Below are positions 2,393-9,085 of a stretch of 64,000 bases of DNA, one piece after another. Origin of the DNA: Candidatus Eiseniibacteriota bacterium (GTDB lineage: Bacteria; Eisenbacteria; RBG-16-71-46; CAZAMP01); assembly GCA_965224245.1 (NCBI GenBank), contig OZ245046.1:1952001-2016000 (forward strand), written 5' to 3'. Position numbers and translations under genes: made by a program. The number at the start of each line of letters is the position of its first letter. Position 1 is the stretch's first letter. The notes under the pieces were generated by a model. It did not search any database. It worked only from the letters and a program-made list of their open reading frames with translations, and was not told the DNA's origin.

Positions 2393-2467
2393 TGGCAGCC
2401 CTACGGGGAATCGAACCCCGGCTTCATGGCTGAGAACCATGCGTCCTAACCACTAGACCATAGGGCC
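2393..2467 (-). tRNA. tRNA-Glu (anticodon CTC)
   Basis: GGCCCTATGGTCTAGTGGTTAGGACGCATGGTTCTCAGCCATGAAGCCGGGGTTCGATTCCCCGTAGGGCTGCCA folds as a cloverleaf, with TTCGA T-loop and encoded CCA. Confidence 0.97.
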
Positions 2468-2520
2468 ACACATCGGCGTCGCGAGCGTAATCGCAAGCCA
2501 GAAGATCGGTTGTCACGACA

Positions 2521-2594
2521 TGGCTGGGGAGCAGGGACTCGAACCCCGATCTTACGGTCCAGAGCCGCATGTCCTACCATTGGACGACTCCCCA
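2521..2594 (-). tRNA. tRNA-Gln (anticodon CTG)
   Basis: TGGGGAGTCGTCCAATGGTAGGACATGCGGCTCTGGACCGTAAGATCGGGGTTCGAGTCCCTGCTCCCCAGCCA. U1-A72 pair typical of tRNA-Gln; encoded CCA. Confidence 0.97.
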
Positions 2595-2608
2595 CCCGAA
2601 CGCGGAAG

Positions 2609-2638
2609 ACGCTATCACAGGTTTTTCGAGGGCCTCAA
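2609..2638 (-). promoter_or_regulatory. Putative promoter for tRNA-Gln/tRNA-Glu (TTGAGG-N18-TAGCGT, extended TGn -10)
   Basis: Lies 15-45 nt upstream of the tRNA-Gln 5' end. Confidence 0.5.
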
Positions 2639-2659
2639 GCGCAACTTGAGCCGCGTGGT

Positions 2660-3859
2660 TCACGTGCGTGGCTCCCCGTCCCGATGCGCTCGTTCCAGAC
2701 GGGCGAGCGCTCTCGCGGGACCGAGCAGCTCCCAGACGCGAGCCAGCGACGGCGCCACCTCGCGGGCCGTGATCGCCCAGCGCAGGACCCGGCGGCAGTC
2801 GTGGAGCTCGCTCCGGCGCCCGGCCACGAGGCGGTTCAGGGCCTCCTGCAGCTCGGCGGCCGTTCCCGGCGCGGCCTCGAGGACCGCGGCGGCGACACGG
2901 GACAGCTGATCCCGATCGGCCGCGGGGATGGCCGGTACCCGCCACGGCTCGGCCAGGAAGCCGAGAAAGCGCGCGACGTCTCCGAACCGTCGGATCCGAG
3001 GCCGGATCGCCGCGAAGAGCGCCGGCCAGCGGTCGGGCGTCTCCCGTACCCCGGCGACCTCGAGTTCGTGCCCCAGACGTGCCATCACGCGCTCCTCGGG
3101 CATGTCGAGGATCGCGTCCCGGTTGGCGGCCCCCAGCGCCTCGAGATCGAAGGGGAGCACCGCCGCACCGACGCCGAGGAAGCCTCGGACCCCTTCCGGC
3201 TCGAGCCCTTCGTCTCGCAGGTCGGGCACCGCGTCCCTCCCGGATCCGCGCCAGAGCGGCGCGCCATCGGGGCCGACCACGATCGGCGCCTCCAGAGGAG
3301 AGGACACCGATCCGCCCAGCCGCTCGGCCAGTGCGTGGGCGAGGCGTACCGTCTCGCGCGAGCGGCGATCGGCGACCAGGCCGGCGCCCTCCCCGCGGAT
3401 CAGGAGCGTGAGGACGTCGAGCACGTCGGGACCGATCGGACGGTCCCGGTGGTCGGGCAGGCCGTCTCGCACGCGAAGCCCGCCGTCGCCGGCGGCGCCG
3501 AACGATCCGGACGCCGGGTCGCGATCGCGGCATCGACCGTCGTAGCGGGGCTCGCGGCCCTCCACCAGCGCGGAGGCGGCCAGCTCACGCAGGCGTTCGG
3601 GCGAGCAGGTACAGCGATAGGCGTGACCCCCGGCCAGGAGCGCCGCACCGCTCTCGGCGCGGCCGGTCTTCATCGCGGCCAGCGTGGACGCCGGCCGGGC
3701 CGCCTCGTAGAGCCACGAGAGGCCGTCCGGCGTGAGGACCGGGGCCTCGACACCGGGAGTCCACCAGAGGGGCGACTCCCGACCGCCCGCGGCCCGAACG
3801 AGCGCCGCCGCGCCGTCCAGCGAGAGCGACGGCGCGGCGGTCACCAGCGCGAGGGTCAT
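2660..3859 (-). CDS. gltX: Glutamyl-tRNA synthetase homologue with degenerate active site (probable pseudoenzyme)
   Basis: Keeps GluRS blocks AYRCTCSPERL, EGREPRYDGRCR, LIRGE, GPDG, LRDEGLEPEG and the anticodon domain LRWAITAREVAPSL...LLGPARALARL. Lacks RFAPSPTG/HIGH, RIEDTD and KLSKR. Sits directly upstream of tRNA-Gln/Glu. Confidence 0.85.
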   Translation of the reverse strand: MTLALVTAAPSLSLDGAAALVRAAGGRESPLWWTPGVEAPVLTPDGLSWLYEAARPASTLAAMKTGRAESGAALLAGGHAYRCTCSPERLRELAASALVEGREPRYDGRCRDRDPASGSFGAAGDGGLRVRDGLPDHRDRPIGPDVLDVLTLLIRGEGAGLVADRRSRETVRLAHALAERLGGSVSSPLEAPIVVGPDGAPLWRGSGRDAVPDLRDEGLEPEGVRGFLGVGAAVLPFDLEALGAANRDAILDMPEERVMARLGHELEVAGVRETPDRWPALFAAIRPRIRRFGDVARFLGFLAEPWRVPAIPAADRDQLSRVAAAVLEAAPGTAAELQEALNRLVAGRRSELHDCRRVLRWAITAREVAPSLARVWELLGPARALARLERAHRDGEPRT

Positions 3860-3865
3860 CGGGCG

Positions 3866-6800
3866 CTAGCGCGAGAGGACGAGCTTCTTGGACCGGACGT
3901 CGTCCCCCACCGAGAGTCGATAGACGTAGATGCCCGGCGAGAGCCGCCGGCCGGCCGCGTCGCGACCGTCCCAGGAGACGCCGTACGTCCCCGGTACCTG
4001 CACCTCGTTCACGAGCGCCGCGACCCGTCGCCCGGCCACGTCGAAGATCTCGAGCGACACCGGACGCCCGCCCGCGTCGCTCCCGTCGCCGACCGTGTAC
4101 TGGATGGTCGTCAGCGGGCTGAACGGGTTCGGGGCGTTCTGCATCAGCGTGGTGACGAGCGGTACGGACTTGACCCGGACCACGTGCGGCCCGCTGACCT
4201 CCGGGGCCACCCCCGTCCGGTATCCGATGATCCAGTAGCTCGCGCTCAGCCCGGCGGGCGCTTGCGTGTCCGTGAACCGGTACGTCCCGTCGGGGCTCGA
4301 CCCGCCGATCTCACCGATCAGCGAGCGCGGCGACGTTGCCGAGGCCCGCTCGATGCCGAAGTGCGAGTAGCCACCCTCGGCGTTCCAGCGAATGGAGACC
4401 TGACCCGGTGTGGTCGACGCCAGCGTCACGCTGCCGAGATCGATCGGCACGACTCCGTGTCCGCTGCCGTACACGCCCGTGTTCCGCGGATTGTGCCGGA
4501 ACTGCGGCCATGGGTTCTCGTCGAACACGAACGGTCCGGAGTCGGTCTGGAGCGAGACCACCCGGTCGAACGTGCCGATCACCACGATGTCCATCTTGCC
4601 GTTCCGATCCATGTCCCAGATCGCCGGTGCCCCGTAGACGATGCCGCCCACGTTGTACGGGAATCCGCCCACCACCGAGCCGTCGGCGTTCAGCGCGTAG
4701 ATGTCGCCGCCGCCGGTTCCGATGACGAACTCGGGCTCGGGATCCATGTCGATGTTGGCCATCGATCCGTTGAACAGGATCTGCGAGACGTCGTCGCCCT
4801 CGATGCCGAGGCTGAGCGGGTTCCAGCCGGCCAGGGGCTCTCCGGTCGCGGCCGTGTACGCGTACAGGAGACCAGTGTGCCAGCCGTGCACGACGTCGAC
4901 CTCGCCGTCGCCGTCGAAGTCTCCCAGGACCGGTGACGGAAGGAAGTCCTTGAACGGCCCCGAGTCCAGGAAGCCGTACTGCTGCGGCGGATACCCGGGC
5001 AGCGCGTCCCCGTTCTCGTCGATGCCGTGAAGCGCGTTGCCGTTGACGATGAACGTCTCGTACTCGCCGTCGCCGTCCACGTCACCGACGGCCGGAGACG
5101 ACGTGAAGGCGAGGAAGCCCGAGAACGAGGGCGTGTACGGCCAGCCCGGCGCCTCGCTGACCACGCCGCCGTCCAGCGACAGCGCGCGGACGAAGCCGGC
5201 GTTGCCGGCGCGCTCGCCGGCGATGATCTCGTCGCGACCGTCGCCGTCGAAGTCGACCAGCGAGACCGTGCCGTAGTTGTACCGGGAGCCACCGGCCGGC
5301 GACTTCCAGAGCACACCGTTGGTGATGGGATCGGCGTCGCCGTCGATCACCTCGGTGCCGTCGTGATTGAACGCGATCATCGTGCCCCGATAGGCATCGC
5401 CCGGGCCGCCGGCCCAGAAGACCACCTCGAGCTCGGGATCCTCGTCGATGTTCCCGATGACGGGGCTCGACCACAGAAGCTGCGAACTGGATCCGATCTG
5501 CCAGTCGCCGCCGCCCCAGGCCAGCGTTCCGTCGGCATGCCAGCACCACACGGTGCCCTTGTCCGCGTGCAGCATGACGATCTCGAGCTGACCGGCCGGA
5601 TCCAGGTCCATGTTGGCCACCGCGGCCTTGGCCCACCACCACGGCGCCACCGCGCCCGGACCGTCGGCGCCGGTTTCCTCGGCGAAGATTCCCAGGGTGG
5701 CCGGCCGACCGTCCCCGTCGACGAAGTCGGTGCCGTTTCCGCGCAGCACGTACGGGTAGCGCGCGCCGAAGATCAGCTCCTTGGTGGCGTCGACGCCCTC
5801 GTCCAGGTTGGCGAAGGTGACCGAGCCGCGGTTGTCGCTCCCGGAGATGTCCACCGGGAATCCGACCGTCGACGGCGGCGAGGTCGACGCGACCACCGTG
5901 TCCGCGAAGGCGCTCTCGTTGCCCGAGCTGTCGACGGCGGTGACCGTGAAGCTGAACTCGGTCAACGGGGCCAGTCCGAGCGCGGCGTGAAACGCACCGA
6001 TCACGGGCGTCTCGTTCACGCGCGTCAGCGTTCCCGCGTCCTCCCGATAGACGTTGTAGCCGAGGAGATCCTCCGCCTCCGACGGCGTCCAGACCACGCG
6101 AATGAAGCTCGGCGCCGGCTGGGCCCACACCGAGTCGGGCGGCGCGGGCGGGACGAAGTCGATCCGCTGCGTGCGCAAGCTCCCGAGCGCGTCGCGGTAC
6201 GTCAGGTCGACGAGCGGCTCGCCGGGCCCGATGACCTGATACACGAGGGGCTCGGACGTGGCGACGGCGCCCGGCGACAGATCGATCGCGCCGATCCCGT
6301 CCACGATCGACACCACGCCCGGGTCGACGGCCACGATCTCGACCTCGCCGGTCAGCGGTGTGCCGTTGCCGCGGTTGTATGCGCTCACCGTGAACGCGAC
6401 GTCGCCGCCCGCGGGCACGGCGGGGTTCAGCGCGACGTGCTCGATGCGCGGGTTCCCCACGATCAGCGTGACCTCGCGCGTCACCGTCCCCGCCCCCGAC
6501 GTGATCGAGACCGACATCGGAACCGTCACGTACGACGACTCCGCCGGCAGATCCGACGTGACGTCCACCGAGACCGCCGTCGACACCACCTCGGCGCCGA
6601 CCCCGACCGCGCCCGCGGTCGCTGACGGCGAGGTGACGGTCGCGTAGGGAGACGACGTGCTCGCCGTGATCGTGAGGCTGGACGCCGCGACCGCTCCCTC
6701 GTTTCGGATCCGGAACGCGAGCCCGAAGGACTCCCCGCGATCGGCGGCCCCCGAACCGTTGCCGGCGGCGTCGTCGACCTCGAGCCCGGCCACCACGAGA

Positions 6801-9085
6801 TGCTCGCCGGTCGCCGCGACGACCTGCGAGGCGAGCTGCGCGGGCAGGAACCCGTTCTTGGTCGCTGAGACGGTGAATTCACCCAGCGAGGACGGCGCGA
6901 AGTCGAACGTGACGTTACCCAGGGCATCGGTGACGCCGGTCAGGAACGCCTCGCCGTCCTTGTAGAGCGTCACGTCGACGTCGGGCTCGCCGGTGAACGT
7001 ACCCTGCTTGAAGATCCGCGGGGTGTAGGTGTCGCCGTCGAGCGGGAACGTCGTCGACGCGCTGACCACGAGCCCGGCGGGGACCGCCGGCCACAGCCGG
7101 AGCGTCGGATCGCCTAGCAGGATCAGGCTGTACAGCGTCCAGCGCTCGGTCCGGTCGCCGCCCGCGGCCACGGCGGCGAACTCCTCGCGCAGGCACTCCA
7201 GATGGGCGTCGCCCAGCGGCAGGTCCTGGATCAGCGCCTTGTCGAAGAAGCACTCCACGTGGGCGCGGGAGACGCGCGGGTAGTCGAGCTCGGTGGCCGC
7301 GATGCAGGCGAAGGCGCCGCCGGACCCGTTGACCCGGTTGTTCGACAGGAAGTGCTCGATGATGCAGTCGAAGTCGATGGCCCCCGAGTCACAGTTGATC
7401 GCGTAGATGAACGACGTGCGATCTCCGTTCTCGGCCGCGTCCGCATCCCCGGCGAGAAGCTTCTCGCCGGGGGCGCCGACCGCCATGTTGTCGCGAGAGC
7501 CGTGGCCGATGTGGACGACGATGTGCCGTCCCGTATCGAAGTCGTCGCGCGCGATCTGGGCACTCAGCGGCGCCGGAGTGTAGTCCGCGTCGGGCCAGCA
7601 CGTGTAGGCCTCGTAGAGCATGTTGGCGCCCGCGCGGAACCCGTCGGGCAGGCAGCACTGGTAAATCGGGTCGGCCAGGAGCGCGCCGTCGCCGATCGAG
7701 GACGTGAACTCCTCGCAGTCTCCGGACCACTCCTGCGGGAACAGCGCCTCGGCCCACATCGAGACGGTCTCGATGTAGCTGGCGTCGAAGCGAGACGGGT
7801 TGGCGCCGGAGTAGTTGAGCGTCTTCAGGACCATCGCCGTGGCTTCTTCGGCGTTCCCGGCGGGCAGGCGGCCCACGTAGATGTCCGGCTCGAGATCCGC
7901 TTCGTCGCCGGGATCACCGGCGATCGAGGGTCCCTCGCCGATGATGTGGTCGCCGTCGGCGTTCCAGTTTCCGTCGAGGCAGGCGAAGTAGTAGTCCGTC
8001 GCGAGATCCTGGCCCCGCGAGCGGGCGAAGCGGGTCGGCACGAAGCCCGTGTCCCCGCCGAGAAGGGCGTACGTCGTCCCCCAGTGGACGTAGGCGTCGC
8101 GCAGGAAGACGCGGATGCGCGCGGCCATGTCCTCGGCCTCGTAGTGCTCGGTGACCCAGTCGGTCGTCCGCACCAGCGTTCGCGTGCCCGTCTCGGTCCG
8201 GAAGTCGGCCAGATCCTGGAAGATGGACTCCCACTCGGCCGTGGTGATGATCACGAAGTCGACCGGGCTGCCGTCGAGCGACGGCGTCTCGCTGGGCCGA
8301 AACACGCCGTCGTCGCCGCGCGAGACGGACACGCCGCCCGCCGGCGGCGCCGAGCCGAGGAGCCAGTCCACGCGCGCCGCCACCTCGTCGCGCTCCTTCG
8401 CGTCCTCGTCGGCCGCGCGGCGGCGCCGCGTGGCGAGCTCCGGAGTGACCGGCACGGGCGCCGTCCGGATGCGGAGCGTGAACGTCTCGATCCACTCCAC
8501 CGTTCCGGTGGAGGGCTCGTAGCGTACGGGCTGGGTCTCGATCGCGACGATGCGATGACCACGGAAGTAGCCCACGGTCGCGCTCGACGGCGCGTGATCG
8601 GGCAGCCAGCCGTCGGCCGCGTAGTCGGCGGCGTCGGGCGGCACGACGTCGGGGAGATCGGGATCCGGCGTCGGGGCCACGCGCAGGCCGCTCCCGATCG
8701 ATCGGCTCGAGCCCGGGACGAGGTCGACCGACACGACCGTCTCGTTTGCGGGCAGCCCTACCCGGAAGACCACCGTGGGCAATGCCGGGGATCCGACCGG
8801 CTCCACCACCGACGCACCGGCGAGATCGATCTCCCAGCCGTTCGGGGTCTCGACCATGCCGAACGGGCGGTCCCGCAGGTCGACGACGCGCTCGTACTCC
8901 GCCGCGGATCCGGTCGAAGCCACCGCCGCGCCGAGCGTCGCGGCCAGAGCCAGGATCGAGCCGAGCGTCGCGTGCCGGCCGGGCGAGCGCCGGGTGCCGA
9001 GGCCCAGACGCGATGGAAGTGGGGAACGCAGATCACCGATGCGCACGGAGTCCTCCAGTCCGAGTCCGTGGGTTGGGGATGCCAC
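3866..9085 (-). CDS. C25 family (gingipain-like) cysteine peptidase with propeptide, FN3, FG-GAP/VCBS repeats and C-terminal FlgD-Ig/T9SS-like sorting domain
   Basis: VGSPALP propeptide; YALLGGD, TDYYFACLDG and IYVGRLP; catalytic HIGHG and AINCDSG; LILLGDP; FN3 segment DLLGYNVYR...VTAVDSSGNES; multiple (V/D)GDxDGDG repeats; CTD QNAPNPF...IFDVAGRRV...WDGRDAAGRRLSPGIYVYRL. Confidence 0.9.
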   Translation of the reverse strand: MASPTHGLGLEDSVRIGDLRSPLPSRLGLGTRRSPGRHATLGSILALAATLGAAVASTGSAAEYERVVDLRDRPFGMVETPNGWEIDLAGASVVEPVGSPALPTVVFRVGLPANETVVSVDLVPGSSRSIGSGLRVAPTPDPDLPDVVPPDAADYAADGWLPDHAPSSATVGYFRGHRIVAIETQPVRYEPSTGTVEWIETFTLRIRTAPVPVTPELATRRRRAADEDAKERDEVAARVDWLLGSAPPAGGVSVSRGDDGVFRPSETPSLDGSPVDFVIITTAEWESIFQDLADFRTETGTRTLVRTTDWVTEHYEAEDMAARIRVFLRDAYVHWGTTYALLGGDTGFVPTRFARSRGQDLATDYYFACLDGNWNADGDHIIGEGPSIAGDPGDEADLEPDIYVGRLPAGNAEEATAMVLKTLNYSGANPSRFDASYIETVSMWAEALFPQEWSGDCEEFTSSIGDGALLADPIYQCCLPDGFRAGANMLYEAYTCWPDADYTPAPLSAQIARDDFDTGRHIVVHIGHGSRDNMAVGAPGEKLLAGDADAAENGDRTSFIYAINCDSGAIDFDCIIEHFLSNNRVNGSGGAFACIAATELDYPRVSRAHVECFFDKALIQDLPLGDAHLECLREEFAAVAAGGDRTERWTLYSLILLGDPTLRLWPAVPAGLVVSASTTFPLDGDTYTPRIFKQGTFTGEPDVDVTLYKDGEAFLTGVTDALGNVTFDFAPSSLGEFTVSATKNGFLPAQLASQVVAATGEHLVVAGLEVDDAAGNGSGAADRGESFGLAFRIRNEGAVAASSLTITASTSSPYATVTSPSATAGAVGVGAEVVSTAVSVDVTSDLPAESSYVTVPMSVSITSGAGTVTREVTLIVGNPRIEHVALNPAVPAGGDVAFTVSAYNRGNGTPLTGEVEIVAVDPGVVSIVDGIGAIDLSPGAVATSEPLVYQVIGPGEPLVDLTYRDALGSLRTQRIDFVPPAPPDSVWAQPAPSFIRVVWTPSEAEDLLGYNVYREDAGTLTRVNETPVIGAFHAALGLAPLTEFSFTVTAVDSSGNESAFADTVVASTSPPSTVGFPVDISGSDNRGSVTFANLDEGVDATKELIFGARYPYVLRGNGTDFVDGDGRPATLGIFAEETGADGPGAVAPWWWAKAAVANMDLDPAGQLEIVMLHADKGTVWCWHADGTLAWGGGDWQIGSSSQLLWSSPVIGNIDEDPELEVVFWAGGPGDAYRGTMIAFNHDGTEVIDGDADPITNGVLWKSPAGGSRYNYGTVSLVDFDGDGRDEIIAGERAGNAGFVRALSLDGGVVSEAPGWPYTPSFSGFLAFTSSPAVGDVDGDGEYETFIVNGNALHGIDENGDALPGYPPQQYGFLDSGPFKDFLPSPVLGDFDGDGEVDVVHGWHTGLLYAYTAATGEPLAGWNPLSLGIEGDDVSQILFNGSMANIDMDPEPEFVIGTGGGDIYALNADGSVVGGFPYNVGGIVYGAPAIWDMDRNGKMDIVVIGTFDRVVSLQTDSGPFVFDENPWPQFRHNPRNTGVYGSGHGVVPIDLGSVTLASTTPGQVSIRWNAEGGYSHFGIERASATSPRSLIGEIGGSSPDGTYRFTDTQAPAGLSASYWIIGYRTGVAPEVSGPHVVRVKSVPLVTTLMQNAPNPFSPLTTIQYTVGDGSDAGGRPVSLEIFDVAGRRVAALVNEVQVPGTYGVSWDGRDAAGRRLSPGIYVYRLSVGDDVRSKKLVLSR

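Follow-up and report, generated by a model that had tools for sequence, protein, structure and literature searches.

A 64,000-nucleotide stretch of DNA from Candidatus Eiseniibacteriota bacterium (contig OZ245046.1, positions 1,952,001 to 2,016,000 of the forward strand), referred to here as the window, carries an open reading frame (ORF) for a protein that we term pseudo-GluRS. This protein is probably a non-catalytic derivative of glutamyl-tRNA synthetase (GluRS) that is held by selection, descends in place from an ancestral gltX gene and binds the anticodon arm of tRNA(Glu). Direct support for all but the binding comes from the loss of catalytic motifs, positional orthology, intact and diverged relatives and constraint at the codon level, together with the GluRS fold, which structure models predict to be retained. 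Being derived from an aminoacyl-tRNA synthetase (aaRS), having lost the catalytic signatures and being maintained by selection, it belongs to the pseudo-synthetases. An original prediction, made from the letters of the DNA, had described an uninterrupted 399-residue ORF collinear with GluRS beside tRNA genes, and on this the coordinates, ARAGORN and the alignment agree. The window's genome, G000 (6.94 Mb, 27 contigs, 97.4% complete), was compared throughout with G001, the only other genome of its taxonomic family (63% GC).

Homology of the window protein to GluRS is real yet weak. With the GluRS model TIGR00464 it reaches 40.7 bits where 289.95 are required, which leaves the protein outside that family, and the match to tRNA-synt_1c (PF00749) is confined to residues 73-113 at 19.4 bits, under the cut-off of 23.4. 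The anticodon-binding domain, which the original prediction had taken to be kept, is recognized by Pfam. Collinearity was evaluated in an alignment of the window protein, a close relative (P0002), the G001 ortholog and 13 motif-complete GluRS, the last coming from 11 of 19 relatives' loci, G000's own gltX and two database matches. All motif strings quoted earlier are present, at the RFAPSPTG/HIGH, zinc-motif, IRGxDH and KMSKS columns. The ORF and its features are the following:

2660..3859, minus strand: pseudo-GluRS ORF (P0001), ATG start, 399 residues plus stop, no internal stops
3812..3841, minus strand, residues 7-16: TAAPSLSLDG, the remnant of RFAPSPTG..HIGH by alignment column, without HIGH
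3527..3622, minus strand, residues 80-111: CxC...YDGxC, a putative zinc/acceptor-arm segment, from Pfam and alignment
3383..3400, minus strand, residues 154-159: IRGEGA, the remnant of IRGxDH by alignment, unconserved across the family
3245..3274, minus strand, residues 196-205: GPDGAPLWRG, a new family motif replacing GPDGxKLSKR
2993..3007, minus strand, residues 285-289: IRPRI, in which R288 aligns with R358 of Thermus GluRS
2744..2794, minus strand, residues 356-372: RRVLRWAITAREVAPSL, the most conserved family motif, with invariant R357, R360, T364 and P370
2687..3037, minus strand, residues 275-391: anticodon-binding domain PF19269 (Anticodon_2), Pfam E 2.4e-9, 38.1 bits against a cut-off of 23.6

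Adenylate formation by class I synthetases depends on HIGH and KMSKS, and the glutamate pocket is lined by the RIEDTD, PTY..VVDD and IRGxDH motifs. In the window protein the PSPTG/HIGH column reads TAAPSLSLDGAA and holds no HIGH signature, the KLSKR columns read PLWRG (APLWRG) and do not match K[LMI]SKR, and the RIEDTD and PTY..VVDD stretches are substituted or deleted. The zinc segment is represented by AYRCTCSPERL (residues 80-90) and EPRYDGRCR (residues 103-111). Large deletions relative to GluRS are common to all three aligned pseudo-GluRS sequences, those of the window, P0002 and G001. The protein is no GluQRS (YadB) either: it scores 14.6 against 276.7 with TIGR03838 and 15.5 against 256 with NF004314, and its anticodon-binding domain is present.

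A wider family shares this condition. A word-indexed search returned one close relative, P0002 (293 residues, E 6.9e-39), the other 93 of the 94 matches being ordinary GluRS of 24-33% identity, and an ESM Atlas search gave ordinary GluRS clusters only (score 0.92). A profile built from the window protein, P0002 and the G001 ortholog and searched against 1.84 billion representatives recovered 15 clusters with E-values of 1.6e-200 to 4.4e-28. The next match, P0110 at 4e-17, carries PLSKRHG and is a real GluRS, so that a gap of 11 orders of E-value separates the two groups. Family members have open frames and are 33-46% identical to the window protein. Six long forms, including P0249, measure 399-407 residues and all keep the CxC..YDGxC segment with three zinc-motif cysteines, whereas five full-length short forms of 269-321 residues are without it and have lost most of the catalytic domain; six of the 17 family sequences are probably fragments. 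HIGH at its site and KMSKS are each found in none of the 17, and the lone HxGx string (P0103) falls in a C-terminal helix. The KMSKS site is covered in 13 sequences, eight of which read GPDG[AS]PLWR. PF19269 matched all 16 members scanned; PF00749 was touched by the window protein alone, below its cut-off.

The family is marked by the motifs [VI][VI]GPDGAPLWR, GYEPeGVRrFL and RRVLRWA[IL]TGQxVAPPLxxVWDLLG. Eight residues are invariant in all 16 members (R357, R360, T364, P370, V375, W376, G380 and R387), and an N-terminal strand-helix is also conserved, persisting in the short forms. What all members share is a core made up of the remains of the KMSKS loop, the region that contacts the stem and the anticodon-binding domain; the zinc module on the acceptor side is optional. 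The zinc/acceptor-binding segment emphasized in the original prediction is indeed kept here and in the long forms; nevertheless, it is dispensable, as the five full-length members without it demonstrate.

The phylogeny was built from 42 rows, namely 11 family members (without the six fragments), 5 tRNA-adjacent gltX, 12 other relatives' gltX and 14 database GluRS; L013 was dropped, its frame having no PSPTG. The 11 family members form one clade with SH-aLRT support of 100, apart from all 31 real GluRS. Since long and short forms are interleaved on the tree, the zinc segment was lost more than once. Motif loss and deletions are common to the family, and the loss therefore predates its radiation. 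Family DNA was also sought in contigs. The scan of genome contigs gave 13 pattern matches with one relative, the G001 contig, and a first scan of metagenome contigs gave 12 pattern matches with no relative. From the 24 matches of a second metagenome scan, the lone tblastn pass (L037) was rejected as an unrelated ORF that has only VGPDGAPLW in common and no tRNA nearby. PADLOC reported no defense-system matches for two members.

The ortholog in G001 allows constraint to be assessed at the DNA level. Its match to the window protein spans residues 3-388 (E 1.2e-45); it contains no stops and neither HIGH nor KMSKS. Its surroundings are syntenic, with the gene for a big protein, then the ortholog, then tRNA-Gln and tRNA-Glu. 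An intact ortholog with the same motif loss and omega below one is what the original prediction had expected of a retained gene. All gaps in the alignment of the two genes are in frame. Identity at the three codon positions is 0.546, 0.551 and 0.387, where composition leads one to expect 0.33 at the third, and 88 of the 142 residues identical between G000 and G001 use different codons. The NG86 omegas for this pair of genomes are all inflated, synonymous divergence (dS) being saturated, and the useful figure is the comparison with the neighboring gene:

pseudo-GluRS: amino acid identity 38.5%, omega 0.46
real gltX: amino acid identity 65%, omega 0.26
glnS: amino acid identity 67%, omega 0.24
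big neighbor, C-terminal part: amino acid identity 51%, omega 0.42

GC contents at codon positions 1, 2 and 3 are 0.82, 0.58 and 0.865 in pseudo-GluRS versus 0.71, 0.44 and 0.90 in gltX. Coding periodicity is therefore kept but skewed, as for a fast-evolving gene.

The position of the gene indicates its origin. Its neighbors on the same strand are the following:

3866..9085, minus strand: gene for a 1739-residue protein upstream, with its stop 6 nucleotides ahead of the pseudo-GluRS ATG; the syntenic marker of the ancestral gltX slot
2521..2594, minus strand: tRNA-Gln(CTG), found by ARAGORN, 65 nucleotides 3' of the ORF and the sole gene of its isoacceptor genome-wide
2393..2467, minus strand: tRNA-Glu(CTC), found by ARAGORN, following tRNA-Gln and the sole gene of its isoacceptor genome-wide

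When tRNAs were scanned in the loci of 18 relatives, tRNA-Gln(CTG) was found just 3' of a gltX homolog in five, with tRNA-Glu(CTC) next in four of the five. These tRNA-adjacent gltX genes are motif-complete (PSPTG..HVGG and [KR]LSKR) and carry the same CxC..YDGRC segment as the window protein. A homolog of the 1739-residue protein is directly upstream of the active gltX in four of the five (L011, L012, L016 and L022); in L020 glnS takes this place instead of the big protein. Because four of five relatives have the same order, the class had the arrangement of big protein, gltX, tRNA-Gln and tRNA-Glu ancestrally, and in it the gltX position is taken by the window ORF.

Charging can be assigned to another gene. 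As had been predicted, a motif-complete gltX is present elsewhere in G000, encoding 534 residues with RFAPSPTGYLHIGG (PSPTGYLHIGG) and KLSKR and scoring 441.5 bits in frame:

G000:C1:1221837-1225168 (L001:1486-3090, L005:1396-3126), about 730 kb from the window: gltX-glnS pair, glnS encoding 576 residues

The gltX stop overlaps the glnS start by 4 nucleotides, making this a gltX-glnS operon. The pair is kept in G001 and is seen in several relatives of the class, for instance G007 and G034. On the tree, the functional gltX of both G000 and G001 falls together with the clade of tRNA-adjacent gltX genes (support 95). The G000 gltX is without the cysteine zinc motif and has an insertion of about 30 residues directly after KLSKR. 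As to the partner gene, the glnS match in G012 (G012:C1:103815-105402) is in pieces and in different frames, three pieces having one in-frame TGA each; it may be a broken gene or an assembly error. The second gltX, the constrained and intact ortholog with the same loss, and the wider intact family are the reasons why a repurposed non-catalytic protein ranks above a pseudogene and above a divergent active enzyme.

Structure prediction gave a confident model. AlphaFold2 returned a pLDDT of 91.8 and a pTM of 0.88 for the window protein from a 53-row alignment that included GluRS, and from 16 family rows alone a pLDDT of 90.3 and a pTM of 0.85 with the same secondary structure. The best Foldseek matches to the predicted fold are bacterial GluRS (2cfo, 4gri and 1j09), over the whole length and with query-normalized TM scores of 0.73-0.76. 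Residue equivalences were read off, by counting, from a HMMER alignment between the family profile and Thermus thermophilus GluRS (1g59_A), in which R360 corresponds to Thermus R435, P370 to P445 and L372 to L447. The R288 column, aligned with R358, holds arginine in 13, lysine in two and glutamate in one of the 16 members. According to the accessible text of PMC12088422, Arg358 of Thermus GluRS binds C36, the pocket for base 34 has Leu447 and Phe448 as its floor, and an arginine of high conservation makes a stacking contact with U35 and a hydrogen bond with C34; the offsets given there lead us to identify this arginine as residue 435. Arg358 discriminates in a lineage-specific manner in the available account (PMC3927822), and for this reason no specificity for Glu versus Gln is assigned here. 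As the conserved core consists of the anticodon domain and the stem-contact region, and the residues aligned with contacts are invariant or nearly so, the protein would bind tRNA(Glu), and possibly tRNA(Gln), by the anticodon arm without charging it. The contact-aligned residues appear compatible with tRNA binding without proving it. Thus, of the repurposed tRNA-binding protein proposed originally, the non-catalytic and selected family with intact relatives stands on observation, and the tRNA binding is suggested by sequence.

The following course of events may be envisaged. An ancestral gltX would have been situated between a gene for a large surface-type protein and the tRNA-Gln(CTG) and tRNA-Glu(CTC) genes. 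A second gltX, overlapping glnS, would have taken over charging in the window's family, and the tRNA-adjacent copy would have lost HIGH, KMSKS and the glutamate/ATP pocket while keeping its tRNA-reading end. A burst of change would have been followed by purifying selection as a small family, and tRNA bound by the protein could be sequestered, protected, presented or sensed. The HisRS-like domain of Gcn2 is dead and binds uncharged tRNA. By analogy, a more specific and only tentative proposal is that pseudo-GluRS represents an undescribed bacterial pseudo-synthetase family that is produced from one locus with its tRNAs and might recognize the major tRNA(Glu), and possibly tRNA(Gln), by its anticodon without charging it, serving either as a Gcn2-like sensor or buffer of charging or availability or as a shield of the anticodon loop.

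Two functions suggested in the original prediction find no support in the gene content of the genomes. Both AsnRS and GlnRS are present in G000, while GatB_N was not found in this 97.4% complete genome, although the control search detected it in 12 of 14 genomes, and the best gatA match reaches 173 bits, far under the cut-off of 481. G000 therefore appears to make Gln-tRNA and Asn-tRNA by direct routes, and a role as an adaptor of the GatCAB transamidosome is unsupported. G001 has GatB along with GlnRS and AsnRS, and a loss of the amidotransferase route seems accordingly to have taken place inside the window's family. Across 41 genomes (G000 and 40 relatives), GatB is present in 34 and GlnRS exceeds its cut-off in 26, so that amidation and direct (GlnRS) pathways are both common in the class. 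Likewise, a channel for charged tRNA to heme synthesis is unsupported, since hemA exceeds its cut-off in G000 but not in G001.

Several observations weigh against a selected, tRNA-binding GluRS derivative. Pseudo-GluRS evolves fast, at 38.5% identity between the two genomes compared with 65% for gltX and 67% for glnS, and its GC content, above that of neighboring genes at positions 1 and 2 and below it at position 3, fits relaxed constraint. The codon test covers one pair with saturated dS, DNA being at hand from two family members, and a protein-guided codon alignment in itself favors positions 1 and 2. The contact positions are structural hallmarks of all GluRS, and their conservation could reflect folding alone. 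The stem of the family on the tree measures about 4 changes per site and the family is unplaced among GluRS clades, so that synteny is the basis for deriving it from the local gltX. With 2 genomes out of 206 in the phylum (E <= 1e-18), the family is also rare, its members are called 'hypothetical protein' where the sources name them, and the run search listed no RNA sequencing run containing the stretch.

Among other explanations, the one that survives best, though we regard it as unlikely, is a subunit with a regulatory or scaffolding role that works by protein contacts in the manner of HisZ and HisG, with GluRS, GlnRS, GluTR or another protein as its partner and tRNA binding absent or secondary. 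Non-catalytic aaRS paralogs of such logic are known, HisZ being an example in the accessible text of PMC9437257, and P. aeruginosa GluRS dimerizes through its anticodon-binding domain according to the available part of PMC12088422. In the pseudo-GluRS family, the new motif GPDGAPLWR at the KMSKS loop and the conserved N-terminal strand-helix could form a protein interface. Nevertheless, no partner co-occurs consistently: only G001 yielded GatB, and only in G000 does hemA exceed its cut-off. The tRNAs and the probably secreted protein aside, no conserved neighbor hints at one. Conservation is moreover strongest on the helices that face the anticodon.

A decaying gltX pseudogene, open merely because stops are rare at 70% GC, is very improbable and already largely refuted. 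Loss of every catalytic motif, fast evolution, raised GC at codon positions 1 and 2 with lowered GC at position 3 relative to neighboring genes, and the abundance of long spurious ORFs would all be in keeping with decay. However, the syntenic ortholog is intact at 38% identity with third positions saturated and gaps in frame, and it is open at just 63% GC. There are no stops in G000 or G001, omega is near that of the neighboring gene, and some 15 diverged clusters have open frames (DNA being available for two members), the six long forms being matched in length at 399 to 407 residues. Family-wide conservation of the new motifs also speaks against decay, and the shared motif loss and deletions are older than the radiation.

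Least probable of all is a highly divergent active ligase with an unusual active site, using tRNA or another acceptor as GluQRS and MshC do: the GluRS fold is predicted to be retained overall, GPDG and an arginine in place of the second KMSKS lysine are conserved and three zinc-motif cysteines are kept in the long forms, yet the HIGH histidines, the first KMSKS lysine and the RIEDTD, PTY..VVDD and IRGxDH columns are changed, deleted or unconserved, and short forms in the same clade are without most of the catalytic domain.

The remaining features of the locus bear on how the ORF is to be read. One further ORF overlaps it on the opposite strand:

2510..4936, plus strand: antisense ORF of 808 residues across the big gene and pseudo-GluRS, a shadow ORF as is typical of high GC and no gene candidate

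In DNA of 70% GC, with an ORF of this size opposite the same stretch, ORF length is no evidence of a gene, and homology and conservation carry the case. The 1739-residue protein upstream has repeat-rich regions and a conserved C-terminal part about 51% identical to its G001 homolog; it looks like a secreted or surface protein. The spacing of 6 nucleotides suggests that pseudo-GluRS may be co-transcribed with this gene, and no promoter-like or terminator-like sites were found between the big gene and the tRNAs. In four sequencing runs, no variants of the organism occur inside the ORF, the remaining pieces being tRNAs of other organisms, and one contig from the probable source sample covers the stretch with no differences. 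ARAGORN counted 55 tRNAs in the whole genome, among which the UUC and UUG isoacceptors are each represented by a single gene elsewhere. One of the 55 is a tRNA-SeC(TCA), and the organism therefore probably uses selenocysteine.

Pseudo-GluRS may be compared with several known systems. It resembles bacterial GluRS (TIGR00464; PF00749 and PF19269; PDB 1J09/1N78, 2CFO and 4GRI) in its collinear domains, fold, PF19269 and genomic slot, and its CxC..YDGxC segment matches that of the tRNA-adjacent gltX genes of the class. Unlike bacterial GluRS, it is shorter by about 70-130 residues and has no HIGH or KMSKS, and its RIEDTD, PTY..VVDD and IRGxDH motifs are lost or unconserved. GluQRS (YadB) is likewise a GluRS-derived paralog with a job outside normal charging, but its architecture is opposite to that of the window protein. 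YadB keeps an active catalytic core and is without the anticodon-binding domain. It has been described as a paralog of the GluRS catalytic domain (PMC3542578, accessible text), and it is the sole GluRS-derived aaRS-like protein in the table of a 2022 review, as far as its available text goes (PMC9437257). The nearest functional analog is HisZ, a HisRS paralog and the regulatory subunit of HisG, which lost adenylation and is kept for regulation according to the same text (PMC9437257). HisZ and the domain of Gcn2 differ from pseudo-GluRS in being class II and HisRS-derived, with no sequence relation to it, and in having defined partners. GluRS2, whether of the tRNA(Gln)-specific H. pylori type or the T. 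maritima type, is also a second GluRS copy with a differing role. In the available text of Dasgupta and Basu 2014 (PMC3927822), the T. maritima type is termed non-functional and GluRS2 coexists with GlnRS in some genomes. By these descriptions, however, GluRS2 is a full-length GluRS, whereas the window family forms a clade of its own. In the main text of the openly searchable full texts, including PMC5388404 and PMC3927822, no GluRS paralog without HIGH and KMSKS but with the anticodon domain was found.

For a few synthetases, dead copies that serve in binding or regulation are known; in the searchable literature, none of them derives from GluRS with the anticodon half retained. The distribution of pseudo-GluRS is narrow and lies in uncultured bacteria. 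The evolutionary route is visible: the old gltX stays by the tRNAs, the copy in the gltX-glnS operon takes over charging, and the chemistry is lost. Besides protein synthesis, tRNA(Glu) supplies the synthesis of heme and the pathways to some peptide natural products. If the binding of tRNA(Glu) is true, pseudo-GluRS would be a natural minimal module for reading an anticodon and a new player in the handling of tRNA(Glu).

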